From the NCBI GenBank assembly GCA_015491245.1, contig WFWH01000002.1, positions 3,823-67,822 of the forward strand: a DNA stretch of 64,000 nt. Direction: 5' to 3'. Position numbers and translations under genes: made by a program. The notes under the pieces were generated by a model. That model ran no database searches, had not been told where the DNA came from, and was given only the letters and a program-made list of their open reading frames with translations. Each line of letters opens with the position of its first letter. Positions within the stretch are counted from its first letter, which is position 1. This DNA comes from Patescibacteria group bacterium (lineage in GTDB: Bacteria > Patescibacteriota > Minisyncoccia > Phycocordibacterales > UBA12088). Of the stretch, positions 4,246 to 57,008 are shown one piece after another.

Positions 4246-6038
4246 CGCTGCCGCTTGGGGATGCGTACCGGCGCCAAAGGATGTGTTGCCGCCGCGGCAC
4301 TTTCATCCAGCTCCCGGGAAATGTGCGCCTTGGTGCGCGGAAAGCCATGAACGAGTTGCGCGTGCAATGCGCGCTCCCTCCTGGTAAGAGGACGCGTTTT
4401 CCCCTCTTTTTCCCAAGAGCGCGCACAGCGCGCGACGCCACTCTCCAGCGGCGCAAATGAATCCGCCTCTGCCGTACGCGTTCGGGCGCGCACTTTCCCT
4501 GCCACGCGTGCGCCTCCCTGCCACACGAGCCACAAGAGCACCCCCAGAAGAGTAAGGGCGCCCATAAGCGTCGCCGCCATGGAGATATAGCTCACTGCAA
4601 TAGAGCCAAAGAGCAGAATCTTTGGCTGGCGCACCGGTATTAACGGAGTAGCCACAGTATTGCTCTCTGCGCCTTTCTCATTTCGCACTTTCAAAAAGAT
4701 TTCATATTCTCCCTCGGGGGCCGCGGCGAACGCCTCGAGCGCAAAATTGCCGTTTGCATCAGCGCGCGTTTCAATGGTGGCACGCGCCATTCCATCGCGG
4801 CGCACCTGCGCCACCACGCGACCGCGCGGATAGGTGGTACCGCGCACGATGAGGGGGCTCCCCACCGATACCACCCGGGGGACCTCTCCCAGCACGGGCG
4901 CCTTCAGTGGTGCCACGACGAATGAAACGGTGGTGGCAGTGCGGTTGCCGGCCCAATCGTATGCTGCTACCGTAAGCGCGTGCGTACCCGGACCTTCCGC
5001 AGAAATCGTGTAGCGCCCCTCCTCATCCGGCGCCCACTTTTGCGGCGGCGCGCCATTAAGCGATGCCGTGAAGTAGGCAATGCCCGAAAAGGCATCCTCT
5101 CCCTCAACAATAAAGCGCACGCGCGGATCGGTGCGGTCGCGCCGCGCGTACTCTTCTATTCGGGTGAACTGCGGAGGGGTAGTATCCACGCGCAGAGGGT
5201 AGTGCTGTACCGTACCCCAAACACCATTGTCCTTTACCTGGAGGTGAAAATACGACACCCCGTCGGGAAGGTCCGCGTAGCGCATGGTGCGCGTGCCGGG
5301 TGCGAGGCGGCGCATGGGGACGCCGCGAGGGTCTTGATCCAACCCCACACGCACCGCTGCCGCATCTCCCGGGAGTTGCCAGCGCAACAGCGCGGTAGAG
5401 GTCGCATACCAACGCATCGGATCGGGATGCGTGGATGACTGAATTACCCCTCCTGGCGCCACACGTGCTCCTGCGGCTTGCGCCACAAAAGAAAGCGCCG
5501 GAAGTACCTCCCGCGCGGTAATAGTGTAGGCACCGGACCGCAATTGGCTCAAAATATTAGTGGCCCTTCCGTTTGCCGCTAGCACCGCCGCTCCTTGGGA
5601 AAACCATACTTGGCTGGCTTTGTTACGCAGTGCGCGCAAGCGCACCGAGAACAGGAGCCCCTCTGCTCCCGAAAAGTCACTCCCCGGTGCAACCGCCCCG
5701 GAAAACACAATACGGCCCTCATCGGAGTTGTAGGAAGGCGGTGTCACCCATGAGGAAAAAATAGATCCCTCTGTTTCAATGGCTACCAGTTCCCAATCCT
5801 CCTCATCAAAAGCTAGTGCTCCCTCCGCCGCATTGATTTTCTCTTTGCCGGTATTGACCATTACGCGAATGGTAAATTCCTCCCCAAGGGTAACCAGCGC
5901 CGTTGGCGGAGCGACATAGAGGAGTGCATCCTCAGCGCGAACCGACAGAGGAAACAGCAGCACAAGGGCCCACACCCACACCACTGCGGCACATGCGGCG
6001 GCAGTGCGCAGAGTTTTAGCGCTCTCGCTCTGTGCCAT
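4221..6038 (-). CDS. cell-surface protein: signal peptide + cohesin domain + Ig-like repeats + C-terminal TM anchor
   Basis: The preferred start is MAQSESAKTLRTAAACAAVVWVWALVLLFPLSVRA (signal peptide). Cohesin signature VMVNTGKEKINAAEGALAFDEEDWELVAIETEGSIFSSWVTPPSYNSDEGRIVFSGAVAPGSDFSGAEGLLFSVRLRALRNKASQ...VLAANGRATNILS. Beta-rich repeats follow, then the TM helix ILLFGSIAVSYISMAATLMGALTLLGVLLWLVW and a basic tail. Confidence 0.6.
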   Translation of the reverse strand: MAQSESAKTLRTAAACAAVVWVWALVLLFPLSVRAEDALLYVAPPTALVTLGEEFTIRVMVNTGKEKINAAEGALAFDEEDWELVAIETEGSIFSSWVTPPSYNSDEGRIVFSGAVAPGSDFSGAEGLLFSVRLRALRNKASQVWFSQGAAVLAANGRATNILSQLRSGAYTITAREVLPALSFVAQAAGARVAPGGVIQSSTHPDPMRWYATSTALLRWQLPGDAAAVRVGLDQDPRGVPMRRLAPGTRTMRYADLPDGVSYFHLQVKDNGVWGTVQHYPLRVDTTPPQFTRIEEYARRDRTDPRVRFIVEGEDAFSGIAYFTASLNGAPPQKWAPDEEGRYTISAEGPGTHALTVAAYDWAGNRTATTVSFVVAPLKAPVLGEVPRVVSVGSPLIVRGTTYPRGRVVAQVRRDGMARATIETRADANGNFALEAFAAAPEGEYEIFLKVRNEKGAESNTVATPLIPVRQPKILLFGSIAVSYISMAATLMGALTLLGVLLWLVWQGGARVAGKVRARTRTAEADSFAPLESGVARCARSWEKEGKTRPLTRRERALHAQLVHGFPRTKAHISRELDESAAAATHPLAPVRIPKRQRYRKAPPR

Positions 6039-6045
6039 ACTTCCA

Positions 6046-7146
6046 TCACTCCGCAGTGCGGCGCGCATCTCCCGCATCCACATCTGACGCCACTCCCTGC
6101 CCCCGCACCGCCGCGCGTGCGGCACTCCCCGCAAGCCGCCGCTGCCGCACGCGCCACCACAGCGCAACCAGTGCCGCGCCGCCCACGAGGGCAATCCCCC
6201 ACCCCCACAGAGGAATACGGCGATAGGGGGCGCGCGTCTGTGCAGCAGGAGGTTGGTAACGCACCACGCGCGCATTGCCCGCTTTATCCACCGCCTTAAC
6301 CTCAATCACGCTCCTGAGGCTTTGGTCTTTCAACACATAGGGGCTTGCAGCCACCTCCCACCGCGCGGCGCCTTTTTTTCCGATGGGGAGCACGCCACGG
6401 GCAGCGCCCACCTCGCGTACCTCGTAGTGGTCAATGCCGCTTTGTTTGTCCGTCGTGGAGAACGCAATGTAGTACCTGCCGTCCGCCACCGCAGGATCAT
6501 TGTTGAGCACGATAGAAAATAGCTCAGGTGCCACCGTATCCTGCCGCACACGTGCGAGCCACTCGTCTCGTGCCGGGCGCGCCAAATAGGGAGCAACGGT
6601 AAGCACCGAAGACCTCGCAGTGGTGGGAAGCAGCGTTCCCCGCCCGTCATGGGCATACACGCGCGTAAAATCTATACTCACACGCGCCTCCTGCGGCTCT
6701 TGGACGGCACCTTGCACCAAAAAGGCAATATCCGCGAGAATGTTGGGGGCGTCGGGGCCATTTGAGTTTCCTCCGCAGTAGCCGCCAGGGATGCCGCCGG
6801 AAAACCGTACCACCCCCTCCCCTTTATCAATTTTTGGCACCTCGGGCCACAGCGAGAGTATCGAGCGCCCCCTGCCCACATCCACCGCGGTGAGGAGGTT
6901 TCGGTCGTAGCGCACCACTACCTCCACCGCGTTTACGCATGCGCCCTCGGTATCAAGGCGCAACGGCAGTACCACCACATCCCCACGCTGCAGTGCCGCA
7001 TTTCGCGCGTCAAAGGAGATTATCGCCGCACGCGCGGGGAGGGTGGGAGAGAAAAGCATCCCCAGCACCCACAGCACCCCCCACACCGCACCATGCGCTC
7101 TACGCACCCACACGGTATCACGTAGCGTGGAAGGAAACGGTGCCAT
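6046..7146 (-). CDS. cell-surface protein: signal peptide + cohesin domain + C-terminal TM anchor
   Basis: Signal peptide VWGVLWVLGMLFSPTLPARA. Cohesin pattern ...VVLPLRLDTEGACVNAVEVVVRYDRNLLTAVDVGRGRSILSLWPEVPKIDKGEGVVRFSGGIPGG...NILADIAFLVQGA. C-terminal TM helix IPLWGWGIALVGGAALVALWW. Its stop lies 7 bp upstream of the next gene's start, consistent with an operon. Confidence 0.6.
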   Translation of the reverse strand: MAPFPSTLRDTVWVRRAHGAVWGVLWVLGMLFSPTLPARAAIISFDARNAALQRGDVVVLPLRLDTEGACVNAVEVVVRYDRNLLTAVDVGRGRSILSLWPEVPKIDKGEGVVRFSGGIPGGYCGGNSNGPDAPNILADIAFLVQGAVQEPQEARVSIDFTRVYAHDGRGTLLPTTARSSVLTVAPYLARPARDEWLARVRQDTVAPELFSIVLNNDPAVADGRYYIAFSTTDKQSGIDHYEVREVGAARGVLPIGKKGAARWEVAASPYVLKDQSLRSVIEVKAVDKAGNARVVRYQPPAAQTRAPYRRIPLWGWGIALVGGAALVALWWRVRQRRLAGSAARAAVRGQGVASDVDAGDARRTAE

Positions 7147-33380: not shown

Positions 33381-34325
33381 TCATTTGCGTGTAGGCGCGC
33401 GCGTAACCAATATATTGATCGCCTTGGTCACTATGGGGAGAATATCGTGGTAGAAATTTAAGTCAAGGATATCAGTGATTTTGAACCAGCGCGCATCATC
33501 CAATCCTCCTTTCTCCTCCAAGGTGAGGTCCACAAAATCCGCTTCCGCGAGGTAGTACGTCACGTGCTTGCGAATCTTGCCTTTCTCCGGATTCGCGGCG
33601 ACGTACTCATTTTCGCCCAAAATTTCCTGCGGGCGCACTGTAACGCCGATTTCATCGCGGATTTCCCTTATCACCCCCTTTTCAATGCTCTCCCCCTCTT
33701 TGATGCCCCCTTTGGGCAGGGTCCAGTGCCCGAACACATCATGCACGAGTGCAATGTATATCTCATCACCGTCCCGGGCATACACCACTGCGCCCCCCTT
33801 GTGCTCTACCGGCATCTTTTCATAAGGCACGGCTTGTTTGGGTTTTGCGGGGGCGCGGCGCGCCTTATTTCTTTTTCCGGTCTCGTGTTTTCCCGGCTCC
33901 CCCAACTCTTTGTACACGGCACCCAACACACCGTTAACGAAGCGCCCGCTCGTTTCGCCGCCGAAATTTTTCGCAAGCTCTATCGCTTCGTTAATGGCGA
34001 CTTTGGCCGGTACCTCTTTGCGGTCGGCAAACAAGAGCTCGTAGAGGCCGATGCGGAGAATGTTGCGGTCTATACGCGCAATCTTGTGAATCGGCCACTC
34101 GGGCGCGGCTTTTTCAATGACGAGATCTAGCTCTTTCTGCTTTTCCAACACCCCGCGCAAGAGGCGCTCCATGAAAGGGATATCCTTGGAGCCGGGGGCG
34201 AATTCCTCTATGTTGCGTCGCAACATTTCCACGGCGGGAACGTCCTTCTTCCCCTCTTCTAGCAGCGCATCGCGCTCAAAGAGGGTTTGAAGAACAATGG
34301 AACGTGAAAGGTGCCGGTTCGCCAT
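33381..34325 (-). CDS. nusB: NusB (transcription antitermination) fused to C-terminal NUDIX hydrolase domain
   Basis: The N-terminal 140 aa match NusB ([33 protein letters not shown]). A basic linker follows. The C-terminal 150 aa contain the Nudix box [23 protein letters not shown]. Confidence 0.7.
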   Translation of the reverse strand: [314 protein letters not shown]

Positions 34326-38770: not shown

Positions 38771-39382
38771 CTAGCGCGGTACCACCGTTATGGTGCGTGT
38801 GGCGCTGCCGTAGGGAGGATAATCCAACCGAATCGTGTAGCGCCCGGGCTTGAGCGGGTACGCCTCCGTCGTGTGGCGCATGCGCAGCATGCGCGCCTTA
38901 CCGGGTGCAAGGTAATAGGTAATCTCTTCCCCTGTATTGCAGGCGGGACGCTCGGCGCTGTTGTAGAGCTCGGTTCCATCTTGGGAGAGAATAGCGTATG
39001 AAAGTACACACTTCCTCCTCCCTTTCATGGCAAGCGTTTCGGTGCTGGTATTTTTCACCGTCAACAACAGCCCCTCTATGGGATCCCCCTCCCGATAGGT
39101 GCGGTCGGCAAATTCAATAAGCTGGGAAGCGCGCAGCTCCACCGCATCGGGATTATCCACCGCATCGGGATTGAGCACGGAAATAACCTCCACCGCCTCT
39201 CGTGCGCGCTGCTCCTGTGTCGCAGGAATAATGCCGCGCTGCAGCAAAAGGTCAACGAGTGCCCGAAGTGAGATCGCCTCCACGCGCTGCGCGTACACCA
39301 CGCCACCTGCGAGGAGCGCGAGCGCAAGGGCCCCCCCTGCGAGCCATAGGTTTCTCTTCCTTGCCTCCATGGGAATCATTGT
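38771..39382 (-). CDS. exported or membrane-anchored hypothetical protein
   Basis: MIPMEARKRNLWLAGGALALALLAGGVVYAQ, then a beta-rich region. Start uncertain (39433, 39382 or 39373). Confidence 0.4.
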   Translation of the reverse strand, partial: TMIPMEARKRNLWLAGGALALALLAGGVVYAQRVEAISLRALVDLLLQRGIIPATQEQRAREAVEVISVLNPDAVDNPDAVELRASQLIEFADRTYREGDPIEGLLLTVKNTSTETLAMKGRRKCVLSYAILSQDGTELYNSAERPACNTGEEITYYLAPGKARMLRMRHTTEAYPLKPGRYTIRLDYPPYGSATRTITVVPR

Positions 39383-39439
39383 GCGCGCGCGGCGCGCATT
39401 TTGCAAGTGGGCAATGCGCCGCGGGCGAGGCACCCTTCT

Positions 39440-39467
39440 TTGACAGCGCGGGCGGGGGCGTTATACT
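39440..39467 (+). promoter_or_regulatory. promoter TTGACA-16-TATACT for thrS (about 65-nt leader)
   Basis: ctTTGACAgcgcgggcgggggcgtTATACTtgagcc. Confidence 0.5.
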
Positions 39468-39541
39468 TGAGCCGTATACGGTGCCGCGGCGACATAGTGC
39501 ATTCTTGGCGCCTCCGCGCTTTCGCGCACCACATCGCAACC

Positions 39542-41302
39542 ATGACTGAAGAACATTCCCTTGAACAGATGCGCCACACACTCGCCCATCTTTTGGCCGC
39601 GGCAGTACAAAAGCATTATCCGCACGCAAAGCCCGCAATAGGTCCTGCGATTGAGCACGGGTTTTACTACGATTTTGATTTTTCAGGGGGTGCGGCGCCG
39701 GGTGAGAGCGACCTGCCGAAACTGGAGGAGGAGATGCGCGCGCTCTTGCCCGCATGGGAATCCTTTTCCCGCCACGAAGCCTCCCTTGAAGAAGTCCGCG
39801 CGCTCTTTAAAGAAAACCCCTACAAAAAAGAGCTCGCGGAAGAATTTGCCCGCGAGGGAAAAACGCTCACGCTCTACACCAGCGGCGGCTTTACCGATCT
39901 GTGCCGCGGGGGCCACACGCCCCATCCCGCCCAAGACATCAACCCTCGCGCGTTTGCACTGGATCGCGTCGCGGGCGCGTATTGGCGGGGGGACGAGCGC
40001 AATCCCATGCTGACGCGCATCTACGGGCTTGCCTTCCGCACACCGGAGGAGCTAGAGGCGTTTCGGCAGCAACGCGAGGAAGCGCGCGCGCGCGACCACC
40101 GAAAAATCGGCAAGGCGCACGATTTGTTCGTCTTCTCTGACCTAGTGGGGCCGGGCCTTCCGCTCTGGACGCCCAGGGGCGCGCTGGTGCGCGCGCTGCT
40201 GGACGAGTTCGTGTGGGAGCTGCGCGCGGCGCGCGGTTACCAGCGCGTTGCCATTCCCCACCTCACCAAGCGCGCGCTCTACGAGACGAGTGGCCACTGG
40301 GAAAAATTCCACGAGGAGCTGTTCCGCATCACCTCCCGCGAGGGAAAAGAGTACGCGCTCAAGCCTATGAACTGCCCGCACCACACGCAGATATTTGCCC
40401 GCCGGCCCCATTCTTACCGCGAGATGCCGCAGCGCTACGCCGAAACCACCATGGTCTACCGCGATGAGCAATCGGGCGAGCTAGGAGGGCTCACGCGCGT
40501 CCTGTCCATTACCCAAGACGATTCCCATGTATTTTGCCGCCACGCGCAAATCAAAGAGGAATTTTTCTCCCTATGGGACATGGTGGACACCTTTTACCAA
40601 ACGTTCGGCTTTTCCCTGCGTGTTCGCCTCTCATTTCACGATACGGAACACCCCGAGCAGTACCTCGGCTCAAAAGCGGTATGGGAGAAGGCGGAGCGCG
40701 CGCTGCGCGAAATCGCCGAGGAGCGCCGCGCAGATTTCTTTGAGGCGCGCGGAGAAGCGGCGCTCTACGGCCCGAAGCTGGATTTCATGGCGCAAGACTC
40801 GCTGGGGCGCGCGCACCAAGTGGCCACCATACAACTGGACCTAAACCTGCCGGAGCGCTTTGACCTCTTCTGTATTAATGAAAAGGGAGCACAGGAGCGC
40901 ATCGCCATGATTCACTGTGCCATCATGGGATCGCTGGAGCGCTTTATCGCCGTACTGCTGGAGCACTACGCGGGCGCGCTGCCGCTGTGGCTTTCTCCGG
41001 TGCAGGTCAAAATCCTTCCGATAAGCGACGAGGCAGCAAGCTATGCCGCGCGCGTAGAGGAGGCTCTCCGCCAAAAGGGAATCCGCACCGTGGTGGACGG
41101 CTCCAAGGAAACCTTGGGAAAAAGGATTCGCCTCGCCAAGGAAGAAAAGGTTCCCTTTCTCGCCGTCGTAGGGAACAAAGAAGCGTCACGGGGGACACTG
41201 GCGGTGGAAACGCGCGGCGCCGGCCGTACGGAGGAGAAGATGGAGGATTTCGCCGCGCGCGTTGCAGAAGCGGTACGCACGCGCGCCAATATCCCCTCGT
41301 AG
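39542..41302 (+). CDS. thrS: threonyl-tRNA synthetase, short form lacking N-terminal TGS domain
   Basis: It starts at the editing-domain region (HTLAHLLAAAVQKHYPHAKPAIGPAIEHGFYYDFDF). Class II motifs appear (MNCPHH...RDEQSGELGGLTRV), followed by a C-terminal anticodon-binding domain. 586 aa. Confidence 0.85.
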   Translation: MTEEHSLEQMRHTLAHLLAAAVQKHYPHAKPAIGPAIEHGFYYDFDFSGGAAPGESDLPKLEEEMRALLPAWESFSRHEASLEEVRALFKENPYKKELAEEFAREGKTLTLYTSGGFTDLCRGGHTPHPAQDINPRAFALDRVAGAYWRGDERNPMLTRIYGLAFRTPEELEAFRQQREEARARDHRKIGKAHDLFVFSDLVGPGLPLWTPRGALVRALLDEFVWELRAARGYQRVAIPHLTKRALYETSGHWEKFHEELFRITSREGKEYALKPMNCPHHTQIFARRPHSYREMPQRYAETTMVYRDEQSGELGGLTRVLSITQDDSHVFCRHAQIKEEFFSLWDMVDTFYQTFGFSLRVRLSFHDTEHPEQYLGSKAVWEKAERALREIAEERRADFFEARGEAALYGPKLDFMAQDSLGRAHQVATIQLDLNLPERFDLFCINEKGAQERIAMIHCAIMGSLERFIAVLLEHYAGALPLWLSPVQVKILPISDEAASYAARVEEALRQKGIRTVVDGSKETLGKRIRLAKEEKVPFLAVVGNKEASRGTLAVETRGAGRTEEKMEDFAARVAEAVRTRANIPS

Positions 41303-41404: not shown

Positions 41405-44206
41405 TTAGCGGCCGGCGGCCGCTCCCCGCAGCGCGCCCTGTTTCTCTTCACTCCTGCGCGCAAAGAAGCCGTTTAACTTGGTGAGGGCGATTTTTGCCCC
41501 CACAAGCGGCGCGCCGTAGCTGAAGTCAACACTGTCTGCAAATGCAGCGAGCACCAGCTCAAAGTCTTTGTCCTGCCATGTGCGGGTAAGCGCCACCACC
41601 TCTTTGTCAGGCTTGCGTCCGCCCTCCAGCCGCTGCTTGTACGCCTCATCCAACTCGCGCAGCATGAGGCGCAGGAGCGCATCCGGCTCAACTTGGGCCG
41701 CCTGCGTTTCCTGCAGGACGCGGTAGGCGCCGCGCTGGTCCCCCTGTGCGAGGGCAGACAAGAACTTTTTCATGCGGCGCCTGAGCGAGAGGCGCTCTTC
41801 CGCGGGAGCGGCTGTTTCCTGTTCCTGCTCCTGCACGTTGGCTGCTGGTTCTGCCGCGCCGTTTTTCTCGCGCATCGCCCCTGCGAGAGGCCCGTGCGGC
41901 ACCAAGGCGTCCGCGTCATGCGCCGCCTTCCCCTCCCCTTTATGGTACGGGGCGGAAGGCTGGCGTGCCGCAGCGCCTACCACCGCCGAGAGTGCCGCGG
42001 CGAGCGGCGACGCTTCCTCGCTCTTTCCTGCGGCTGCCTCCGTGCCGCGCTCCTCTCCAGAGTCCGCCTGCCGTATCTCTTCCTCGCGTTGCTTGCGGCC
42101 GCGGCGGCGCGCGAGCAGCATATGCACCCGCTCAGGCGAGAGGAGTATCCATCCGTCCTCGCGGGGGAACGTTTCCTTGGCGAGCGCGAGCACCTCCTCA
42201 ACGAGAGTGTCGCTTCCCTCCTTCTCTTCCGCGCGCAGGAGCGCATGCTGCGCTTGGGGAGAGAGCAGTATAGACTCCTGTTGCGCTGCCTGCTCCAGGG
42301 CTTTCTCGCGCGGTGCCTTCTCATGCGCTTCCAAGACGGGCGCTGCCACTGCAGACTGAGCGATCACCTCCTCCGTTTCCAGGCGTACGCCCTGTGGCTT
42401 ATTTTCTTCTGCCGCAGAGAGATGCGGAAGGGATGCCGCAGAGGGCCCCATGAGCCACTGCCACAGGCGCCGCGCTCCATCGCGCATGACTAAAAAGTAG
42501 GAGAGCGCCGCACTCACCGCGAGCAGAAATGCCCAAAATAGCGCGGTGACAAACGGACCCGCCTCAAACCCCGTGTAGGGGATTTGGTTCAGGTATACGA
42601 ACGAACCCGGCTTGGCTGTTACCACTTTTTTGGCGACGACCACTTTGGGCTTTTTTTGTTCGGGTTGGGGCTCATCTTTGTCCTCTTCTTCTTTGCTGCC
42701 GCAATTCAAACAGCGGCCCCCGCCTCCGCCGCCACTGGCGCGCGTGACCGACGCACTGCAAGACGCCTCATTGCCCTGCGCATCCTTGAAGACGCCGGTA
42801 TAGGTTTTAGCGCCGCCGGGCACGACCGCCCTGCTTCCCGTAGCGGCGACATCGCCCACATCGGGGGTAATGGTACCGCCCACAGCATTCACCGAGGTCC
42901 ACGAAAGCGTCACTGCTTGGGAAGCAGAGGTTACCCGTGCGGGCGACACGGTGAGCGTACACTGCGGAAACGCGTCTGTCACATACACCGCCACCGTCGT
43001 GCTGCAGGTGACGGCAGTGCCGTCACTCCCGGTAAAGGTTCCGGTAAACGTGGTAGTTTTGTTGAGGGGTACCGTCGTACTTCCCAACGCATCCACCGCA
43101 CCGATGCCTTGGTCTATGGACCCCCCGGTCACATGTTCCGCGCGCCAATAAATCGTAGTCGATGCTCCTGCGGCAACCTTTCCGGGTTCCGCCCAAAGTT
43201 CACACACCGGCGCTTTGGGGGCGGGCGGATCCCCCACTTTTTCAAATGCCGCACATATGGGGTAGACGCTATTGGGGGAACTGGTGTCGGGGTACACCGC
43301 ATGTTGGGCGTACACCTCCGTGACCGCCTCACTCAGAAGAAAGTTGCCGTCATGGACCTTGTTAACCTGCAGTGCCTCCACCACATTATCCTCCAAATCT
43401 ACCGTTGCGGCGGTGCCGCTTATGAATCCTTTGTCATTGGTGAGTATCACCTTGTAGCGCTCATCGGGCTGAGAAGCATTCTCGCGCCCTAGGTAACCAT
43501 CCCATGCCGCGAGGGTAACCGTATACAACCCCGGCGAGAGCGATACCGGTACGCGTGCGCTCTGCGCCTCCTTCCACCCCTTGTCGCTGCGCAGCTTTTT
43601 CTCGCCAAAAGAAACAATCGTGCGGTTTTCTCCCGGCGTAAGGGGGCACGCGGGACGTGCCGGAGGCTGCGGCGTTTCTTTTTCAGTCACCTGCACACAG
43701 CGCGGCACCACACTGTGCGGCTCATCGCTCTTGGGGTAGCGCACATGGCGCACCACCACGCGCGCCACGTCGCGCGAAAAAGAAATGTTGTCACCGAAAG
43801 AGCCGGTTACCTGCCCCAGCTCCACTCCGTCGGGCACATCCTCGGTGGGACCGAGCGTAACAACCTCATTGCCGTCAGCATCTAGGAACAACACCTTCCA
43901 CTGCTCCTCGTCTTGGCGATTTACATCCGCATTTTCACGCCCCACATACCCATCATAGGAGAAATAGCGCACCGTATATGTTCCCGCGGGAAAAGAAGCC
44001 TTGCGCGAGAATTCAGTAATGCCCTTGGAAGCTACCAAACGCTTGGTGCCAAAATCCACCACGCCCGCACCGGTAAAGGGACACGCGGCATCGCGTGCCT
44101 TGGTACCTGCCGCAAACGCGGGAACAGGCGCACCGGCAAACAGCAGCGCCAGCGCCGCAAAGGCAATGAGCGCGCGAGAGGTGAAGTGTAAGGTGTGGGT
44201 ACGCAT
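41405..44206 (-). CDS. large surface protein (933 aa): signal peptide, duplicated Cys-bounded domains, Ig-like repeats, Gly-rich linker, [LI]PxTG-like IPYTG + TM + basic stop-transfer, then about 330-aa cytoplasmic domain
   Basis: Signal peptide MRTHTLHFTSRALIAFAALALLFAGAPVPAFA. Internal duplication ACPFTGAG...TYTVRYFSYDGYVGRENA // ACPLTPGE...LYTVTLAAWDGYLGRENA. The sorting-like segment is ...YLNQIPYTGFEAGPFVTALFWAFLLAVSAALSYFLVMRDGARR... Confidence 0.6.
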   Translation of the reverse strand: MRTHTLHFTSRALIAFAALALLFAGAPVPAFAAGTKARDAACPFTGAGVVDFGTKRLVASKGITEFSRKASFPAGTYTVRYFSYDGYVGRENADVNRQDEEQWKVLFLDADGNEVVTLGPTEDVPDGVELGQVTGSFGDNISFSRDVARVVVRHVRYPKSDEPHSVVPRCVQVTEKETPQPPARPACPLTPGENRTIVSFGEKKLRSDKGWKEAQSARVPVSLSPGLYTVTLAAWDGYLGRENASQPDERYKVILTNDKGFISGTAATVDLEDNVVEALQVNKVHDGNFLLSEAVTEVYAQHAVYPDTSSPNSVYPICAAFEKVGDPPAPKAPVCELWAEPGKVAAGASTTIYWRAEHVTGGSIDQGIGAVDALGSTTVPLNKTTTFTGTFTGSDGTAVTCSTTVAVYVTDAFPQCTLTVSPARVTSASQAVTLSWTSVNAVGGTITPDVGDVAATGSRAVVPGGAKTYTGVFKDAQGNEASCSASVTRASGGGGGGRCLNCGSKEEEDKDEPQPEQKKPKVVVAKKVVTAKPGSFVYLNQIPYTGFEAGPFVTALFWAFLLAVSAALSYFLVMRDGARRLWQWLMGPSAASLPHLSAAEENKPQGVRLETEEVIAQSAVAAPVLEAHEKAPREKALEQAAQQESILLSPQAQHALLRAEEKEGSDTLVEEVLALAKETFPREDGWILLSPERVHMLLARRRGRKQREEEIRQADSGEERGTEAAAGKSEEASPLAAALSAVVGAAARQPSAPYHKGEGKAAHDADALVPHGPLAGAMREKNGAAEPAANVQEQEQETAAPAEERLSLRRRMKKFLSALAQGDQRGAYRVLQETQAAQVEPDALLRLMLRELDEAYKQRLEGGRKPDKEVVALTRTWQDKDFELVLAAFADSVDFSYGAPLVGAKIALTKLNGFFARRSEEKQGALRGAAAGR

Positions 44207-44466: not shown

Positions 44467-45297
44467 TTAGTCAATAATCGGGAATGCGCCGACAAAATAC
44501 GCCTCCACAAGGTAGCGCTCGTCTTCTTCGCCCAACACATTGCACGTAGCGAGCGTCAGCATGCGCGTTTCGGTGGAGAATACCACCGGCGTCTCCGGTG
44601 CCAACACCAGTGAGACACGCCGCACACGATACACATAGTTGGTGTCGCGCGTTTGTATCTTGATGATGTCTCCCTCTAAAAGCTCCTTGAGGCGGTTGAA
44701 AACCTTGTAGTTTTTATTCCGCACATACGGCAGCTCGCTGGAGTGCCCAAACAGGAATACGTTGGAGACATCATCCATAAAGCCCGAGGTGGGATAGTGC
44801 ACCACCCCGCGCATGAGTGCCTCCTCTAACACAGGTATGGCGGTGCTCGACGGCGAGATTACCGGTGCGTCCACCTTAATGCGGGGAATGATGATCCTGC
44901 GTGGCGCGCTTGCCGGCAGGGGGCCGGTGCGCACCGCGCGCGCAGGGGTTCCCTCGGTCTTAATGCGTAGGGTATTGTTTCTCTCGGCGGCGGCTGCCGC
45001 CGCAGGGGTATCAGGCGTGGCGGTCTGTGCAGTGGTATCAGATTCTGGTTTTTCCTGTGTTGTGAGTGTAGATGCGGCAGCCGCCGCGCGCTCTCCGGAA
45101 CGCGCAGGAGGTGCGGCGGCTCCAGGCTCGTTCGCGTGCGCTGCGGGTTCCGGCAGGATATCAAAAAACGCGAACGTGCCGCTCAGGAATGCAAATAGCA
45201 CCCCCCATACGGCAAGGTATGCGGCATACCCGCGGATGCCCGGGGTGTGTGCGCGCGTGTAAGTGCTGCGGTGAGGTATGGGATGAGAAAATTGCAT
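44467..45297 (-). CDS. sortase-family transpeptidase (membrane-anchored)
   Basis: N-terminal TM helix AYLAVWGVLFAFLSGTFAFF. Catalytic-triad context FLFGHSS (His), LTLATC (TLxTC Cys) and RYLVEA (Arg). Confidence 0.75.
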   Translation of the reverse strand: MQFSHPIPHRSTYTRAHTPGIRGYAAYLAVWGVLFAFLSGTFAFFDILPEPAAHANEPGAAAPPARSGERAAAAASTLTTQEKPESDTTAQTATPDTPAAAAAAERNNTLRIKTEGTPARAVRTGPLPASAPRRIIIPRIKVDAPVISPSSTAIPVLEEALMRGVVHYPTSGFMDDVSNVFLFGHSSELPYVRNKNYKVFNRLKELLEGDIIKIQTRDTNYVYRVRRVSLVLAPETPVVFSTETRMLTLATCNVLGEEDERYLVEAYFVGAFPIID

Positions 45298-45731: not shown

Positions 45732-46961
45732 ATGATGCACGCCACACACTCTCGCCAGAACACCCCGGAGCCTCAGGAAACCCAGAATGATGCCGCCGCT
45801 GACGCCGCGGGCGCTTCGGCAGAGGCGCACACCTCTCACCCGGCGGTAAAGTTGTTTGCCCTCATTGGCCTTACCGCGATTCTCTTTGCAGGTGCGTGGT
45901 TCTCCGTTAAACTGGTTCAGTGGCTCCCGGGTATCAGCTCCGCCGCTTCTACCTTTACCCTGCGCGAGGTGTTGCCCTTCCCTTTTGGGAACGGAGAAGG
46001 GGCGCGAAAAGGGGCACTGCGCCTCACACTCCCTTCACTGAGTGTAGCGCATGGGGCACCCTTCACTCTCTCCTGGGAATACCCCGGCACGCCGGAAGGC
46101 GCTCCACTATACGCACTCTCCTACACTTGCGCAGAAGGGGTCTCGCTCAGCGTGGTAGATGGGCTCACGATACGCGACCTTCCGTGCGGCACTCCCTACC
46201 GATTCTCCAGTGAGAGCAGAAAAATGCTCCTGGTGCCGCGCTCTTTGAAAAACCGCTTTATTGACGTAACCCTCTCCCTGGTGCTGTTGCGTGCCGATGG
46301 TACGCCGCGCGAGGATACCCGCGCCACGCAAATCATTACCATCGTAAACGAGCGCATCAGTGACAGTCCCTCACTGCGCTCCCCGAAAAAGGGGCAGCGC
46401 GCGCCCGGCCAAGGCAGCACAGGAGACACGAATGCGCCGGAAGCGGTGTCGCGCACCGAGGATGCGGTGCGGGCCGCACCGCAAACCCGCGCGCCGCAAA
46501 AGCCGGTAACGGTATTCGTACCCAATCCCAAGACACGCGAAAATCCCAGTGGCGCGCCTGATCTGGCGGTAGAGGCGCTCACCGTGGGCGCTTCGGTGAC
46601 GGTAAACGGAAAAGACATTTTTGTGCCGCGCACCACCATTGCCGGCTCTGCGACGCCCACTATTTCCTTCCGGGTATCCAATCAAGGCGATAAGCGCAGC
46701 GGCAGCGCATGGCGCTTCCGCTTAACCATCCCCCTGAAGGGTGGGCAAACCTTCACCTACACCTCACCCGCGCAGGAAGTGCTGAAACCCGGAGACTATA
46801 TAGAGTACACCGTTGGTTTGGAGGAACTGGAAGCGGGATCCTATACCGCTACCGTAACCCTCCTCAAGGTTGCGGGCGACAAAAAAGATGCCAACAACCG
46901 CGCCGAGGTATCGTGGAAAGTGGTGTCCTCCGCGCAGGGTAAAGATAAAAACAACTCTTAG
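45732..46961 (+). CDS. membrane-anchored hypothetical protein with C-terminal CARDB-like (cell-adhesion-related) domain
   Basis: TM helix VKLFALIGLTAILFAGAWFSV. CARDB pattern PDLAVEALTVGASVTVNGKDIFVP...ISFRVSNQGDKRSGSAWRFRLTI...LKPGDYIEYTVGLEELEAGSYTATVT. Confidence 0.5.
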   Translation: MMHATHSRQNTPEPQETQNDAAADAAGASAEAHTSHPAVKLFALIGLTAILFAGAWFSVKLVQWLPGISSAASTFTLREVLPFPFGNGEGARKGALRLTLPSLSVAHGAPFTLSWEYPGTPEGAPLYALSYTCAEGVSLSVVDGLTIRDLPCGTPYRFSSESRKMLLVPRSLKNRFIDVTLSLVLLRADGTPREDTRATQIITIVNERISDSPSLRSPKKGQRAPGQGSTGDTNAPEAVSRTEDAVRAAPQTRAPQKPVTVFVPNPKTRENPSGAPDLAVEALTVGASVTVNGKDIFVPRTTIAGSATPTISFRVSNQGDKRSGSAWRFRLTIPLKGGQTFTYTSPAQEVLKPGDYIEYTVGLEELEAGSYTATVTLLKVAGDKKDANNRAEVSWKVVSSAQGKDKNNS

Positions 46962-52660: not shown

Positions 52661-53407
52661 CTAAAATTGGGTGATAAAGCGTAAGTCGGCGCTCAAAAAC
52701 CAACGAATGTCGTCTATTTCGTACTTAACCGCGACGAGGCGCTCAATGCCAGCCCCGAACGCAAACCCGCCATAGCGCGAGGGATCAACGCCCGCCGCAC
52801 TGAGCACGCGAGGGTGCACCATGCCCGCGCCCATAATCTCCATCCAGCGCTCCCCGCGCGCACTGGAGTGCCACATGTCCACCTCTACTCCCGGCTCCAC
52901 AAAGGGAAAGTAGCCCGGGCGGAACCGTGTTTTGATCTCCCGGCAGTAGTAGGAGGAAAGGAACGACTCCAGCACCCCTTTCAGGTGCGCGAGCGTAATG
53001 GCGCCTTTTTTGTCAATCACCAACCCCTCCACTTGGTGGAAGGCCGCCTCGTGAGTCGCATCGGTCGCCTCGTTGCGGAATACCTGCCCGAGCGAGATGA
53101 TGCGATAGGGAGGCGCCACGCCCTTTTTCTGCATCGCCTCCATGTACCGCACCTGAACCGAACTGGTATGGGTGCGCAGGACGAGATGGGGGGCGCCCCG
53201 TACAAAAAACGTATCCTGCGCATCGCGCGCCGGGTGATCTTGCGGCACATTGAGCGCGTCAAAATTGTACCACTCGCTTTCCACGAGGGGGCCTTCCGCA
53301 ACTGCAAACCCCATGGCGCCAAAAATGCTGCGCAGCTCCATCATGGCGCGCGAGAGGGGGTGTATGTGGCCCGCCGGCACGGGTGCTTGGGAGGAGGAAT
53401 CGGTCAC
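52661..53407 (-). CDS. pheS: phenylalanyl-tRNA synthetase alpha subunit, N-terminally short (248 aa), GTG start
   Basis: It starts at a GTG (plus-strand cac, about 53405-53407). The first residues, HPLSRAMMELRSIFGAMGF, align with about residue 100 of E. coli PheS. Class II motifs FRNEATDATHEAAFHQVEG and GAGMVHPRVL are present. Only 23 nt separate it from the upstream gene. Confidence 0.8.
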   Translation of the reverse strand: MTDSSSQAPVPAGHIHPLSRAMMELRSIFGAMGFAVAEGPLVESEWYNFDALNVPQDHPARDAQDTFFVRGAPHLVLRTHTSSVQVRYMEAMQKKGVAPPYRIISLGQVFRNEATDATHEAAFHQVEGLVIDKKGAITLAHLKGVLESFLSSYYCREIKTRFRPGYFPFVEPGVEVDMWHSSARGERWMEIMGAGMVHPRVLSAAGVDPSRYGGFAFGAGIERLVAVKYEIDDIRWFLSADLRFITQF

Positions 53408-53430: not shown

Positions 53431-54477
53431 CTATTCAATCAACTCAAGGAAACGCTGCTGCGCGTCGTCTCGCACAATGATGGTGCTGCCGCTGCGCACA
53501 CGAAAATCAGAGAATTGCCCCCTGATAAGCGTCTGCACGTTCTGGCGCGAGCGGTCGTCCAGCTCTACCGCATGGAGCCCTTTGTCGTTCAGCACCAAGA
53601 GCACATCGTCCCTCCCCGGGAAAAATTCAAAGCGGCGGATGTCGTCCTGCCAATCAATGACAATGGTGTTCTTGCAAGTGATGGTGCAGAAGTAAAAAGG
53701 AATGGCGGCGCGGTCGCCCACCCATACTGCATACACATTACCCCGCTCCAGCCACGCCGCCACGCGGTTGCGCTCGCGCAAGGTGGGCTGTGCGCGGAAA
53801 TCCACCCAGCGCCCCTCCTCCCGTTGCATAAATTCCTCCAAGTAGGGCGGGAGCGCTATGCTAAACACGGTGGTGGTCGCTGCACGTGCGGCACTGCTGG
53901 TCGCCTGCGTACTAGTAGCGTGCGGCGCGCTCGTGGCACGCACTACCGCAAACTGCGGCTGTGCGGTTGCAGTAAAGTACGCCATCAACTCTTCATACGC
54001 GGGATTGGGAACCACGCGCGGCGTACTCGTGGCGCGTGACGAGGTAGCAACCGCAGGCGCACCGCTTCGCGTCGCTTCCGGTGTGGTGGTAGCGGGAATG
54101 GTTTTCCAGGTATGCGTGCGTGGCAGCATCAGCACCCGCGCCTCGGTAACCAAATTGGGGCGCACGTAGAGTGTTTTTTCCCACCAGTAGTAGCCGTCTT
54201 TCTCCACGCGTATGTGGTAGGTGCGGTTGGGGCGCAGATTTTGTATCAGCGTGTTGCGCAAAAAATACCCGTTGCGGTCTACAAACTTATCGTTGAGATA
54301 CACGCGCGTGCCGGCGACATCGGAATGGATGAAAATCCCCCCCGTGCGCACTACGTTGAGCGCGTCATCCAAGCGGTAGCCGCTCGCATACGCGGCGAGG
54401 AGCGGGCCTAACACCACAAAGAGCGCCACCGAGGTCCAGAGCAGTATGCGCCGTTTCTTTCTCTCAAGCGGTTTCAT
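53431..54477 (-). CDS. membrane-anchored PEGA-domain protein
   Basis: TM helix ILLWTSVALFVVLGPLLAAYA. PEGA-like GTRVYLNDKFVDRNGYFLRNTLIQNLRPNRTYHIRVEKDGYYWWEKTLYV. Thr/Ser/Ala-rich linker. Confidence 0.5.
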   Translation of the reverse strand: MKPLERKKRRILLWTSVALFVVLGPLLAAYASGYRLDDALNVVRTGGIFIHSDVAGTRVYLNDKFVDRNGYFLRNTLIQNLRPNRTYHIRVEKDGYYWWEKTLYVRPNLVTEARVLMLPRTHTWKTIPATTTPEATRSGAPAVATSSRATSTPRVVPNPAYEELMAYFTATAQPQFAVVRATSAPHATSTQATSSAARAATTTVFSIALPPYLEEFMQREEGRWVDFRAQPTLRERNRVAAWLERGNVYAVWVGDRAAIPFYFCTITCKNTIVIDWQDDIRRFEFFPGRDDVLLVLNDKGLHAVELDDRSRQNVQTLIRGQFSDFRVRSGSTIIVRDDAQQRFLELIE

Positions 54478-56131
54478 GGGCGAGCGGAGGGGCGGCAGCG
54501 ACGCGATGCTTGGGGGTTACCCAAAACGCACCGAGATAGCGGCCCAGCATGAGGCGCGTCTGGGCATCCAGGCCGGGGATCGCCCCGAATACCACAATGG
54601 TAACGGGAACCAGCGTCCACTGGAGCGCCATAATGGTATAGTGCCATGCCTTCCGCTTTTGCAAATCGGGCGGGAGCGGCGGAATCAGCGTAAAGGCGAC
54701 AATGGCGGAGAGCACGAGCCCGCCCATGGCGAGAATCATCAAATTGCGGGTGAAGAGCGGCAGATTGTAGGAGAGCACCGTATCCCGAAACGCTTCCCCG
54801 CCCAGCAAGAGCGGCAGCCACCCCAGCAGCAGGATAAAGAGCGGATTGGTGGCGAGTGACCAAAATCCCTCAATCTGGACAATGCTGTGCCGTATTTTCT
54901 CCTTGAGAGGTATGCGCTTGTTTTTCACGAAACCAAACAGCATGTAGGGAATGTTCTCCACCCCCCACATCCAGCGGCGGTGCTGCCGGTAGATATTCAC
55001 CATGGTGCGCCAGAGGGACGGCGTCAGATTGGCATCCATGGATACCGGAAACGAAATCGGGACCACGCGGTAGTTGCCGTCATGCGCGAGATACAAATTC
55101 CAAAAAATGCGCGAGTCGTCGGAGATCATGTTTTTTTGCCAAAATCCCACGCGCGCGAGTGCGGCAAATGAAACTGCGTGCGAGGAGAACGTGGTGAGCT
55201 TTTCCGGACGCTCCTGTTGGATCATCTGCCAGAACGTGGAAGAGAGCGCGGCGACCCGCGACACGGCGGGCGCGTGCCATATGTTGTTATTGTAGAGGGG
55301 AACCGGTTGGAACGAAGCGCGCAGGCGGTCTTCGGTAGTCATAAAGTGCCACGAGAGGCAGGCGAAGTAATGGGGGTGCACCACCGTGTCAATGTCAAAT
55401 GCCGACACAATCACATCCTCAAAGGGAATGCCGTGCGCCTCGAGCACAGCGCGCTGCGCCTCTTGGGCCGCATAGGTGATGTTGGGTCCCTTGCCCCGTA
55501 TCTCGCCGGGCAAGCCGTCGGGGTGCACCGTCACCAAAAAGTGCCCGAACCGCGCCCCGTACTTGCGCCGCATGTCCTCCGCAAGCTCACGCGCCGCAGG
55601 ACCCGCGCGCTCCTCCGCCGCCAACACCACGATGAAGCGCCGCAAATCGTAGCGGGCGCGCGCGAGCGCTCGTATGCTCTGCTCCACCACTTCTCTCCCC
55701 TCTCGGTAGAATGGGAGGAGAATGAGGTGGTAGAGATGCTCGTGCTTTACCCCCTCCAGCATGCGCGGCCAATCCACTGCCATGTTGTGGCGGAGCCGCT
55801 TCCAGTTGTGGCGGTGGTGCGCCGAAAGGTACACCGTCTTCAAGAGCCAGTAGAAGTCAAATAGAATAATGAAGTATGCCGCGAGGCGCGGATTGGTTGC
55901 GGAGAGGATTGCCGTGCCCAAGAGCGACCCCCACGCGAGCGCACCGGGAAGTATTTCAAACGCACGGTAGAGCGCACGGTCCCACCCCTGCAGATCGCGC
56001 GCGTGCGCAACATGAAAATAGGGCGTTTTCGCGTAATCCACGTTATGGGCGATTATAGCGGGGCGTTTCTGGCGCGACAAGCGAAGAGGCGCCTCCGCCG
56101 CGCCTCTACCGAGAAAGTCCGGCATACGCAC
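54464..56131 (-). CDS. family-2 glycosyltransferase, integral-membrane processive synthase type (cellulose/chitin/hyaluronan-synthase-like)
   Basis: DxD (SAFDIDTVVH). QxxRW (QHRRWMWG). TM helices lie N-terminal and C-terminal to the catalytic domain. It overlaps the PEGA gene by 14 nt. Start uncertain (56131 GTG or 56125 ATG). Confidence 0.6.
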   Translation of the reverse strand: MRMPDFLGRGAAEAPLRLSRQKRPAIIAHNVDYAKTPYFHVAHARDLQGWDRALYRAFEILPGALAWGSLLGTAILSATNPRLAAYFIILFDFYWLLKTVYLSAHHRHNWKRLRHNMAVDWPRMLEGVKHEHLYHLILLPFYREGREVVEQSIRALARARYDLRRFIVVLAAEERAGPAARELAEDMRRKYGARFGHFLVTVHPDGLPGEIRGKGPNITYAAQEAQRAVLEAHGIPFEDVIVSAFDIDTVVHPHYFACLSWHFMTTEDRLRASFQPVPLYNNNIWHAPAVSRVAALSSTFWQMIQQERPEKLTTFSSHAVSFAALARVGFWQKNMISDDSRIFWNLYLAHDGNYRVVPISFPVSMDANLTPSLWRTMVNIYRQHRRWMWGVENIPYMLFGFVKNKRIPLKEKIRHSIVQIEGFWSLATNPLFILLLGWLPLLLGGEAFRDTVLSYNLPLFTRNLMILAMGGLVLSAIVAFTLIPPLPPDLQKRKAWHYTIMALQWTLVPVTIVVFGAIPGLDAQTRLMLGRYLGAFWVTPKHRVAAAPPLAHETA

Positions 56132-56245
56132 TGGCTTTTCCGCCGCCCGCTTCTTTTTCTAAGCGCGCCACGGCACGCTAAGAACGCTGGACGCGGCTCG
56201 CCGACAAGCACGCTCCTTCGGAGCGTCTTGTATACCGGCTCCGCC

Positions 56246-56300
56246 GTTCGAGTCCCTCTCCGGCAACACACGCTGGTCGCCGCAGGGACTGCCCTGCGGC
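56246..56300 (-). repeat. inverted copy of the tRNA-Thr 3' end (GTTCGAGTCCCTCT-C-CCGGC, 19/20 nt) plus adjacent perfect hairpin GCCGCAGGG-actg-CCCTGCGGC
   Basis: On the minus-strand transcript this lies 6-60 nt downstream of the tRNA. The copy is complementary to the tRNA T-arm and acceptor 3' strand. Its own T-stem cannot pair, so it is a fragment, not a tRNA. Confidence 0.6.
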
Positions 56301-56305
56301 TCCGC

Positions 56306-56378
56306 GTGTGTAAGAGCCGGCAGAGGGACTCGAACCCACGACCTGCGGTTTACAAAACCGCTGCTCTACCAACTGAGC
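56306..56378 (-). tRNA. trnT: tRNA-Thr (anticodon UGU)
   Basis: The reverse complement reads GCCGGCATAGCTCAGTTGGTAGAGCAGCGGTTTTGTAAACCGCAGGTCGTGGGTTCGAGTCCCTCTGCCGGCT. It has a 7-bp acceptor stem, a D-loop AGTTGGTA, an anticodon loop TTTGTAA and a T-loop TTCGAGT. One T-T mismatch in the T-stem. CCA is not encoded. Confidence 0.85.
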
Positions 56379-56420
56379 TATGCCGGCTGCACGGTGGTGG
56401 GTGCGAGGCGGCGGGCAGCA

Positions 56421-57008
56421 CTACCCGCGCGCGGAGAGGCGCGCGATGCGCTCCACTTCAATGCGCTCGCCGAATTTTTGCACCGCCTCTTGAATGAGCG
56501 CCCCCACCGTTTTGGTTTCATCCTTGATGAAGGGCTGCGCTAATAATACCCGCTCCTTCAGGTATGCGTCCATCTTTCCTTCCACGATCTTGGCGCGGAT
56601 TTCCTCGGGCTTGTCCGCCGCCTCTTTCTCAAACACCGCGCGCGCGGCGCGCACGTCGTCTTCTGTTACCTCCTCGCGGCGTACGAATTGCGGATCTGCA
56701 GCCGCCACATGCATGGCAATGTCATAGGCGAGGCGCACAAAATCCTCGTTTTTCGCGACAAAATCAGTCTCGCAGGTAAGGAGTACCATGGCGCCCACCT
56801 CATGGCCGGCATGCACGTACGCTGCCACCGCACCCGCACCCAGCGAGCGGTCAGATTTTTTTGCCGCCGCGGCCCCGCTCTTTTTGCGGAGAATAACCGC
56901 AGCTTTTTCCATGTCGCCCTCAGCCTCTTCCAGCGCCTTTTTGCATTCCATGACCGAAACGCCGGTGCGGGCGCGCAATTCCTTTACCTGATCGGGAGTA
57001 ATCGCCAT
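56421..57008 (-). CDS. tsf: elongation factor Ts (short, 195 aa)
   Basis: MAITPDQVKELRARTGVSVMECKKALEEAEGDMEKAAVILRKKSGAAAAKK (UBA-like N-terminus), then the dimerisation domain. Confidence 0.85.
   Translation of the reverse strand: MAITPDQVKELRARTGVSVMECKKALEEAEGDMEKAAVILRKKSGAAAAKKSDRSLGAGAVAAYVHAGHEVGAMVLLTCETDFVAKNEDFVRLAYDIAMHVAAADPQFVRREEVTEDDVRAARAVFEKEAADKPEEIRAKIVEGKMDAYLKERVLLAQPFIKDETKTVGALIQEAVQKFGERIEVERIARLSARG

Follow-up and report, generated by a model that had tools for sequence, protein, structure and literature searches.

The tRNA-Thr(UGU) locus and its fold-back

The 64,000-nt stretch of DNA analysed here (the window) comes from contig WFWH01000002.1 of a Patescibacteria group bacterium and carries only one tRNA gene, tRNA-Thr(UGU), which is followed by a long composite hairpin that continues into an inverted copy of the tRNA's own 3′ end. 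This fold-back, and how it arose, is our subject. In sequence the window matches scaffold_207 of ENA ERZ23495399 (SAMN12239309) exactly. ARAGORN and Rfam agree on the position of the tRNA gene (lower boundary 56314/5), and no CCA is encoded. On the minus strand, the order of genes is prfA, rpsB, tsf, tRNA-Thr, a GT2 glycosyltransferase gene, a gene for a PEGA-domain protein, pheS and pheT, with GT2 (PF13632) and the PEGA gene assigned by Pfam. The tRNA is probably co-transcribed with rpsB-tsf, since it begins only 33 nt past the tsf stop codon. For GT2, N-terminal alignment of the orthologues indicates that the GTG at 56041 is the probable true start. A sigma-70-like promoter match lies just upstream of this codon, so that GT2 probably has a promoter of its own and the non-coding gap after the tRNA would be about 270 nt. 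The features of the locus are as follows.

56421–57008, minus strand: tsf, encoding EF-Ts (195 aa), the upstream neighbour and the anchor for the comparative loci
56314–56387, minus strand: tRNA-Thr(UGU) gene (ARAGORN; Rfam RF00005, 72.6 bits)
56316–56335, minus strand: left palindrome arm, formed by G53/T-loop, T-stem 3′ strand and acceptor 3′ strand of the tRNA itself (GTTCGAGTCCCTCTGCCGGC)
56266–56311, no strand: palindrome core, −45.3 kcal/mol, z = −5.3
56266–56273 and 56304–56311: outer arms of the core, 8 bp (ACACACGC / GCGTGTGT)
56279–56287 and 56292–56300, loop 56288–56291: inner perfect 9-bp hairpin (GCCGCAGGG-ACTG-CCCTGCGGC)
56246–56264, minus strand: inverted copy, read on the minus strand as GCCGGAGAGGGACTCGAAC, the reverse complement of tRNA positions 53–72 with one base missing
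56210–56226, no strand: second small perfect hairpin, downstream of the inverted copy (ACGCTCC-GAA-GGAGCGT in minus-strand reading)
56176–56199, minus strand: segment GAGCCGCGTCCAGCGTTCTTAGCG, 18/24 like a motif in the tRNA-Leu-linked insertion of a relative (L005), at equal offset from the inverted copy
56052–56080, minus strand: sigma-70-like promoter match TTGTCG-17-TATAAT, just upstream of the GTG at 56041
54464–56041, minus strand: GT2-family glycosyltransferase gene; the listed open reading frame (ORF) extends to 56131, and orthologue homology begins near 56041

A repeat search returned a perfect 14-nt inverted repeat (56246–56259 and 56322–56335), which grows in the alignment to an inverted match of 19/20 with one base deleted (GCCGG-AGAGGGACTCGAAC versus GCCGGCAGAGGGACTCGAAC). 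Together with the core, the structure is an imperfect palindrome of about 90 bp (56246–56335) with nested arms of 14+5, 8 and 9 nt, which differ by indels and asymmetric bulges. Where the T-stem 5′ strand has GTGGG, the inverted copy has GAGGG, which shows that it is the reverse complement of the 3′ strand itself, made at the DNA level, and that the tRNA 5′ strands did not serve as its source. The small hairpin at 56210–56226 corresponds to the second hairpin in the insertions of relatives described below. The initial annotation of the locus had described the inverted copy, the 9-bp hairpin and the complementary arms, and all are present exactly as described; the range it gave, 56230–56378, does hold the feature but clips the 5′ end of the tRNA gene, which reaches 56387. 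As an aside on the tRNA itself, its T-stem (56337–56351) contains a U50:U64 mismatch, a non-canonical pair in the Rfam alignment.

Significance and RNA folding

When the downstream 300 nt were shuffled 300 times, no shuffle attained the inverted-match score (p = 0.003), and the window's score of 32 is the highest among 88 distinct tRNA loci, the bulk of which score at most 17. Several of the significance values in this work come from small shuffle sets, or from motifs that were noticed first and tested afterwards.

The minus-strand RNA of 56225–56390 has a minimum free energy of −102.3 kcal/mol versus −63.5 ± 4.3 kcal/mol for its shuffles (z = −9.1). The predicted fold joins the inverted copy to the T-arm and acceptor 3′ strand in an interrupted duplex of about 38 bp, in line with the earlier proposal that the tRNA 3′ end can be drawn into a duplex of about 40 bp. 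With the cloverleaf enforced, the best energy is −80.6 kcal/mol, about 22 kcal/mol worse than that of the extended duplex. An unprocessed read-through transcript would, according to these energies, thermodynamically favour the duplex that disrupts the tRNA. A terminator scan found no rho-independent terminator site at 56226–56313 on the minus strand, where the stem is present and the U-tract is absent. Searches of Rfam at E ≤ 1 for the window and E ≤ 5 for four relatives returned only the tRNA and chance miRNA-like hairpin matches, with no match to a T-box or any other curated tRNA-sensing or cis-regulatory RNA model. So strong a hairpin between two operons probably affects transcripts, and a termination or processing role is possible.

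Distribution among related loci

About 190 loci were gathered via EF-Ts from relatives, which are metagenome-assembled genomes (MAGs) of Patescibacteria (the candidate phyla radiation, CPR). The comparative set is built on one gene neighbourhood, and tRNAs other than tRNA-Thr are barely sampled in it. The linkage of tsf to tRNA-Thr(UGU) is widely kept (rpsB-tsf-tRNA-Thr synteny), usually with a gene for a membrane protein of about 130 aa in between. In L003–L008 (at about 4590–5010), this position is occupied by a gene for a predicted membrane protein of about 120–150 aa without Pfam match; the window has just the 33 nt of 56388–56420 between tsf and tRNA-Thr, and here the gene is, judging by the synteny, lost or moved.

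The inverted copy itself is patchily distributed. Most of the approximately 27 distinct lineages with enough downstream sequence lack an inverted tRNA 3′ end, and so the check proposed in the initial annotation, conservation in relatives, came out negative. A tsf-linked inverted copy occurs only in the window, L007, L008/L188/L189 and L169/L170, with a short variant in L190–L194, and the positive lineages are interspersed among negatives on the EF-Ts tree. The fold-back is not conserved across orthologous loci. Furthermore, in the sister loci L165/L166, L006 and L173 the next gene (GT2 in L165/L166 and L006; a NUDIX gene and then GT2 in L173) begins 0–14 nt past the tRNA; the spacers of 136–270 nt are therefore insertions. 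In more distant relatives the whole spacer is absent, and the closest EF-Ts relative of the window organism, among 5.8 billion proteins, reaches only 71% identity.

Two side observations concern the same site. At L068 (4950–5025), tRNA-Thr(UGU) is inverted relative to tsf, while it is co-oriented in the closest relatives, L037, L072 and L107; we regard this as another sign of a rearrangement hot spot at the locus. In addition, the metagenomic/Logan contigs L162, L167, L171, L170, L175 and L176 end in or near tRNA-Thr or its insertion, L171 doing so 10 nt past the tRNA and L170 just before the distal repeat. Such ends may reflect k-mers common to several species, or population heterogeneity at the site.

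These breaks raise the question of whether the fold-back is a chimera made during assembly or amplification, fold-back chimeras being known from amplified DNA. We find this barely credible. The indels and asymmetric bulges in the arms suit evolved sequence and not a fresh chimera, conserved synteny continues on both sides of the contig, and equivalents are present in independent assemblies or samples (L169 and L170; L008, L188 and L189).

A recurrent direct/inverted architecture

Four other lineages or tRNAs have an equivalent structure. Their sequences are unrelated, and each inverted copy matches the tRNA next to it.

L007 (Wolfebacteria MAG): inverted copy GAGCCGAG-(25-nt hairpin)-GAGAGGATTCGAA, the complement of its own 21 3′-terminal nt; hairpin between tRNA and inverted copy; direct copy degenerate, 9 nt; period 165 bp
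L169/L170 (EF-Ts 68% identical to that of the window): inverted copy GGGAGC-GGAGA-(23-nt hairpin)-GAAGGGACTCGAA; a second hairpin follows the inverted copy; direct copy perfect, 27 nt (GAGTCCCTTCTCCGGCTCCCGAGCGCA); period 155 bp
L008/L188/L189: inverted copy 13/15; hairpins before and after it; direct copy perfect, 18 nt; period 136 bp
L005, tRNA-Leu(CAA): inverted copy 13/15 (GAGGAGtaAATCGAA); hairpins before and after it; direct copy perfect, 25 nt; period 199 bp

In all of them the inverted copy has a partner, a further copy of the tRNA 3′ end in direct orientation. By shuffle tests, a significant direct copy is found in 4/4 non-window loci with a significant inverted copy, and neither copy in about 30 loci. 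The direct copies lie 136–199 bp downstream and bound a hairpin-rich insertion that is absent from sister genomes. The boundaries are fixed as well: the inverted copy is always the complement of positions 54–66+ (from 53 in the window), and the direct copy in relatives starts at positions 56–58 and extends 2–10 nt into the trailer. The phenomenon is not specific to tRNA-Thr, since the L005 module sits at a tRNA-Leu(CAA) gene of a Paceibacterota MAG (L005:5900–6278, minus strand), where a long hairpin, an inverted T-arm copy, a second hairpin and a direct T-loop-to-trailer copy follow one another.

The short variant of L190–L194 is different in form. A hairpin, GGACCAACCTGT-ATGTAAT-ACAGGTGGCTCC, lies 41 nt past the tRNA; in its right arm, tRNA positions 64–75 are repeated in direct orientation. 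These 12 bp mimic the acceptor stem of tRNA-Thr and end 9 nt before the next ATG (L191:3561–3640), with one substitution in the right arm in L190. Possible interpretations are a processing signal resembling a minihelix and a tRNA duplicate that has collapsed.

The most serious competitor to an origin by insertion or recombination, although distinctly less probable in our judgement, is template switching in situ: a nascent strand would have switched at the hairpin and copied the trailer and tRNA 3′ end as their reverse complement, thus lengthening a terminator hairpin with neither foreign DNA nor a recombinase. Such switching is known to create and lengthen hairpins and to homogenise the arms of inverted repeats (PMC8794818, PMC8604942, PMC13100816). 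The anatomy is in line with it, in that the tRNA 3′ end, trailer and inverted copy make one nested quasi-palindrome at each of the five loci, centred on a loop 10–30 nt past the tRNA, the new arm adjoins the hairpin, whose flank it repeats in reverse complement, and the inserts are mostly perfect short hairpins. The window, moreover, has only the inverted copy, nearly perfect, and no direct repeat. However, template switching yields no direct copy, yet the two copies co-occur in all four other cases and in none of the approximately 30 negatives. The direct copies share their exact sequence with the tRNA and differ from the decayed inverted copy; the one in L169 holds 7 trailer bases missing from the inverted copy, and therefore derives from the tRNA copy. 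In addition, the 75–130 nt between inverted and direct copies are not from local sequence, and ordinary hairpins downstream of other relatives' tRNAs show no expansion. The state of decay also varies: in L008 and L005 the direct copy is perfect and the inverted one decayed, and in the window and L007 the opposite holds, which means that the three copies do not simply age together.

The same decay bears on the possibility that the fold-back is a selected RNA element, namely a terminator, an RNase III site, or a switch controlling tRNA-Thr maturation or read-through into the GT2 operon. In its favour are the advantage of about 22 kcal/mol of the extended duplex over cloverleaf plus local hairpins, an RNase III encoded by the genome (32535–33230, from Pfam scans of window ORFs, which also place ThrRS at 39401–41302), the co-orientation of the tRNA with GT2 between two operons, and the recurrence of the architecture. 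Also, the four spacer substitutions between the L008 strains (L008 versus L188/L189) all fall outside hairpins and repeats, a weak effect (P ~ 0.05). We nevertheless consider a selected element unlikely. The structure is absent at most orthologous loci, even where the downstream gene directly adjoins the tRNA; it has no U-tract and no Rfam family; the decayed inverted copies of L008 and L005 have two mismatches each, T:T or A:C oppositions, which are non-compensatory; and hiding the 3′ half of the single tRNA-Thr(UGU) would be harmful rather than useful. For these reasons, together with the promoter-like site that GT2 has of its own and the missing T-box match, the anti-tRNA regulatory element for the GT2 operon suggested in the initial annotation finds no footing.

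A further reading takes the inverted copy as the best-preserved 20 nt, the 3′ end, of a second tRNA-Thr gene, a whole inverted duplicate, that once lay tail-to-tail with the first and has decayed. The possible remainder of such a gene is the following.

56196–56245, plus strand: possible decayed convergent tRNA-Thr remainder (GTCTTGTATACCG, GCTC..GAGC, GCCGACA), weakly supported

Here GTCTTGTATACCG is like the anticodon loop GTTTTGTAAACCG, with a looser D-arm (GCTC..GAGC) and 5′ acceptor (GCCGACA) on the plus strand, and collinear tests gave p = 0.019 and p = 0.05–0.07. Unconstrained local alignment, on the other hand, gave p = 0.084, and neither ARAGORN nor Rfam called the gene, even at E ≤ 1. 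The other four loci stop sharply at position 54 with no extension, and a core of 19/20 beside about 60% identity beyond it is incompatible with uniform decay. A convergent tRNA is, in our view, quite improbable.

A proposed insertion or recombination footprint

We favour, with moderate confidence, the reading that an insertion or recombination at the T-loop/3′ end of the tRNA made this DNA-level footprint, of which the window has a copy without the distal repeat. The inverted copy is the right arm of the palindrome of about 90 bp, and the left arm is the tRNA T-loop-to-acceptor segment plus trailer. The window fold-back would then represent the end nearest the tRNA of a short non-coding insertion, rich in hairpins, of a kind found repeatedly at tRNA genes of Patescibacteria, with the full order being tRNA 3′ end (direct), hairpin, inverted copy, second hairpin, second direct copy and original downstream gene. 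In such an event, incoming DNA would replace the tRNA 3′ end and displace the original, as in T-loop-sublocation recombination. Partial tRNA copies are a known by-product of the integration of elements (PMC9897764, PMC4383910), and a regenerated tRNA followed by a displaced 3′ fragment is the textbook outcome of T-loop-sublocation recombination (PMC4383910, PMC1762012, PMC9897764). In the better-preserved relatives, the second direct copy starts within the T-loop and continues for a few bases beyond the gene, which is the signature of this kind of recombination or insertion. The boundaries are also those of symmetric sublocation (from the T-loop through the 3′ end), at position 53/54 for the inverted copy and 56–58 for the direct copy in relatives. 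The direct repeat itself is found in L169 (27 nt), L005 (25 nt) and L008 (18 nt) and not in the window, where the distal direct copy may have been lost or never retained, so that the fold-back alone remains. We infer from these parallels that the window copy belongs to the same class as those of the relatives. Any action of the hairpin as RNA would be incidental: a strong stem-loop that ends or insulates the rpsB-tsf-tRNA transcript, or an RNase III substrate, ahead of GT2.

A scar was also among the three readings offered by the initial annotation, and it is the one that fits best, because the feature is absent at most orthologous loci, patchy and lineage-specific in sequence, and has an att-like direct repeat in the better-preserved relatives. 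The form proposed there, a simple inversion, is not borne out. Its remark that att-site repeats are normally direct and not inverted is accurate.

The segments between the copies offer some further indication of a common origin. They are not derived from the tRNA or from nearby DNA, as judged by comparison with local sequence. Some interior motifs are common to different hosts, and even to different tRNAs. They are shared by L008 (Thr) and L005 (Leu) with a score of 16 against a null of 8.2 ± 1.4 (p ≤ 0.002), and by L169 and L007 (p = 0.012); GAGTGAG..GGTCGYGAG is common to L190 and L005. Between the window and L005, the interior match (GAGCCGCGTCCAGCGTTCTTAGCG) has p = 0.046 at an equal offset from the inverted copy; in 2.26 Mb, chance gave only 2 hits as good.

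Several points weigh against a footprint of insertion. Of all the inverted copies, that of the window has decayed least, as would be expected of a recent in-situ fold-back more than of an insertion that is old and eroded. The window has no detectable second direct copy, the best direct match being 7 nt (p = 0.5). Standard integrase att scars come without an inverted copy, so the model leaves the constant inverted copy unexplained, and inserts of 72–199 bp are shorter than ordinary circular intermediates of double-stranded DNA could be. The interior homology is modest on the sequence comparisons made, being pairwise and partly post hoc, and nhmmer with a hidden Markov model of the interior motif found no further copies in 1.2 Mb. 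As for mobility, Pfam scans identified housekeeping genes only among 28 window ORFs (38.7–64 kb), and no integrase or transposase in these or in ten elsewhere, about 20 larger ORFs lying outside the scan; to this extent the earlier statement that no integrase is nearby holds. No mobility gene is present among the gene calls of the related loci either, and the only close pair of strains to compare, 1.3% apart (L008 versus L188/L189), has the L008 insertion in both members, with no sign of present mobility.

A bolder version of the favoured reading, and one we think rather unlikely, is that the direct/hairpin/inverted/hairpin/direct modules are undescribed miniature integrative elements of Patescibacteria, about 70–200 nt long, non-coding and consisting of hairpins only. 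They would insert into the tRNA from T-loop to 3′ end via a folded site, formed by a mimic of the tRNA 3′ end paired with the inverted copy, and would be mobilised in trans by a host or helper recombinase, following the logic of CTX-phi or integron attC. A single strand exchange between the chromosomal site and such a hairpin would give target copy, spacer, inverted copy, spacer and target copy. The window copy would have been immobilised, with its distal repeat lost.

A number of other candidates were tried and rejected. As to repeat families of the type of repetitive extragenic palindromes (REP) or miniature inverted-repeat transposable elements (MITE), the palindrome core and spacer are unrepeated elsewhere in the 64-kb window or in 1.2 Mb of related loci. 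As to a phage attP, exact searches of IMG/VR with the window and L169 tRNA 3′ ends were empty, and matches to the L008 3′ end were phage tRNA genes or chance matches within an 818-aa ORF. The degenerate interior motif hit only coding regions in IMG/VR, with the translation D-N-G-R-E-F-L-T, which we take to resemble a DDE-transposase core motif. BLAST against phage and plasmid collections gave no match. A local tandem-inversion duplication does not account for the sequence between the copies, which is not from the tRNA or the flanks. A retroviral-type primer-binding site is at odds with an inverted copy that complements the gene plus trailer and not the CCA-tailed mature tRNA. For an IS200/IS605-type insertion at the TTAC just past the tRNA, there was no equivalent motif at the other loci and no TnpA/TnpB. 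An invertible promoter (inverton) upstream of a surface-glycan operon would have the inverted repeats that are present, but the 62-bp segment between them is palindromic and without promoter match, and no invertase was found in the scanned ORFs. Lastly, a third direct copy in the window at 56040–56205 was not significant, and a direct copy of the tRNA 5′ end (AGCCGGTATA, 56231–56240, 9/10) is within chance expectation, and is better read as part of the weak anticodon-arm similarity.

Comparison with known systems

Three kinds of known structure come close. First, tyrosine-integrase att sites in the T-loop of tRNA genes (Islander-type; for example, mycobacteriophage Ms6 at tRNA-Ala) share with L169, L008 and L005 a direct repeat of 18–27 nt, which bounds DNA absent from sisters and leaves the tRNA regenerated. 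Unlike such sites, the window lacks a direct repeat, integrase and cargo are missing, the inserts measure only 72–199 bp, and an inverted copy of the target, which is no described feature of att sites, is present in every case.

Second, folded single-stranded attachment sites (PMC3089051, PMC3442271, PMC4792948), such as CTX-phi attP(+), a mobile element that integrates by making use of Xer (IMEX), and integron attC, likewise have target-like sequences in opposite orientation, a short spacer and hairpin pairing. What remains after CTX-phi has integrated is a set of target-like sites in opposite orientation, one of them functional and two non-functional (PMC3089051), and this post-integration layout matches the order of tRNA 3′ end, inverted copy and direct copy. 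The 1-nt deletion and the 23–25-nt hairpin within the inverted copy of L169 and L007 recall the bulges and extrahelical hairpins of attC. In contrast to both systems, the target here is a tRNA gene and not dif or attI, no Xer or IntI recombinase is linked, genes of a single-stranded DNA replicon are absent, the elements would be only about 140–200 nt long, and there is no sign of movement.

Third, in quasi-palindrome template switching, tandem-inversion duplication and the inverted triplication of origin-dependent inverted-repeat amplification (ODIRA), the reverse complement of a flank is contiguous with a hairpin, as it is here, and copies in direct-inverted-direct order with junctions at short palindromes are documented (PMC8794818, PMC13100816, PMC4689423). 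Unlike in quasi-palindromes and ODIRA, however, the segments between the copies are non-local, the third copy does not abut the inverted copy as a symmetrical triplication needs, and the direct copy is not from the inverted one.

A more mundane likeness is that to rho-independent tRNA terminators, with which the window shares a GC-rich perfect stem-loop that follows immediately 3′ of a tRNA, where an operon ends. In AT-rich relatives, the arms of the first hairpin are A/U-rich, as in bidirectional terminators. The differences are that the window has no U-tract and that the stem reaches into the tRNA. The structure thus misses at least one defining feature each of att scars, template-switch products and folded single-stranded DNA sites, and is a member of none. 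The nearest known kind is the tRNA-3′-end duplication scar.

Other features of the window

Several further observations were made on the window. PheS is short (52661–53407, minus strand; 248 aa in the ORF list and 227 aa according to the public gene call), as is EF-Ts with its 195 aa (56421–57008, minus strand); short PheS and EF-Ts are considered typical for reduced CPR genomes. An apparent NusB-NUDIX fusion ORF of 314 aa lies at 33381–34325 (minus strand). The ORF for ribosomal protein L32 (34515–35198, minus strand) has an N-terminal extension of about 150 aa, which may be an artefact of calling the ORF from the first possible start codon. Four ORFs have no Pfam match at E ≤ 0.001: 41405–44206 (minus strand, 933 aa), 45732–46961 (plus strand, 409 aa), 38771–39433 (minus strand, 220 aa) and 6046–7146 (minus strand, 366 aa), the largest of which adjoins a sortase gene (44467–45297).

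Implications

If the fold-back is only a scar, it still has practical consequences. Such structures can mislead searches for riboswitches or anti-tRNA regulators, and may break assemblies. They would also single out the 3′ ends of tRNA genes, tRNA-Thr(UGU) and others, as places where the streamlined genomes of Patescibacteria are prone to rearrangement. Beyond this, neither att duplication nor template switching alone explains why inverted and direct copies are coupled and why their T-loop boundaries are fixed. The pattern could reveal a new type of tiny integrative element or, alternatively, a signature that replication or repair leaves, in organisms whose DNA-repair repertoires are reduced, at genes that are highly transcribed and form hairpins.

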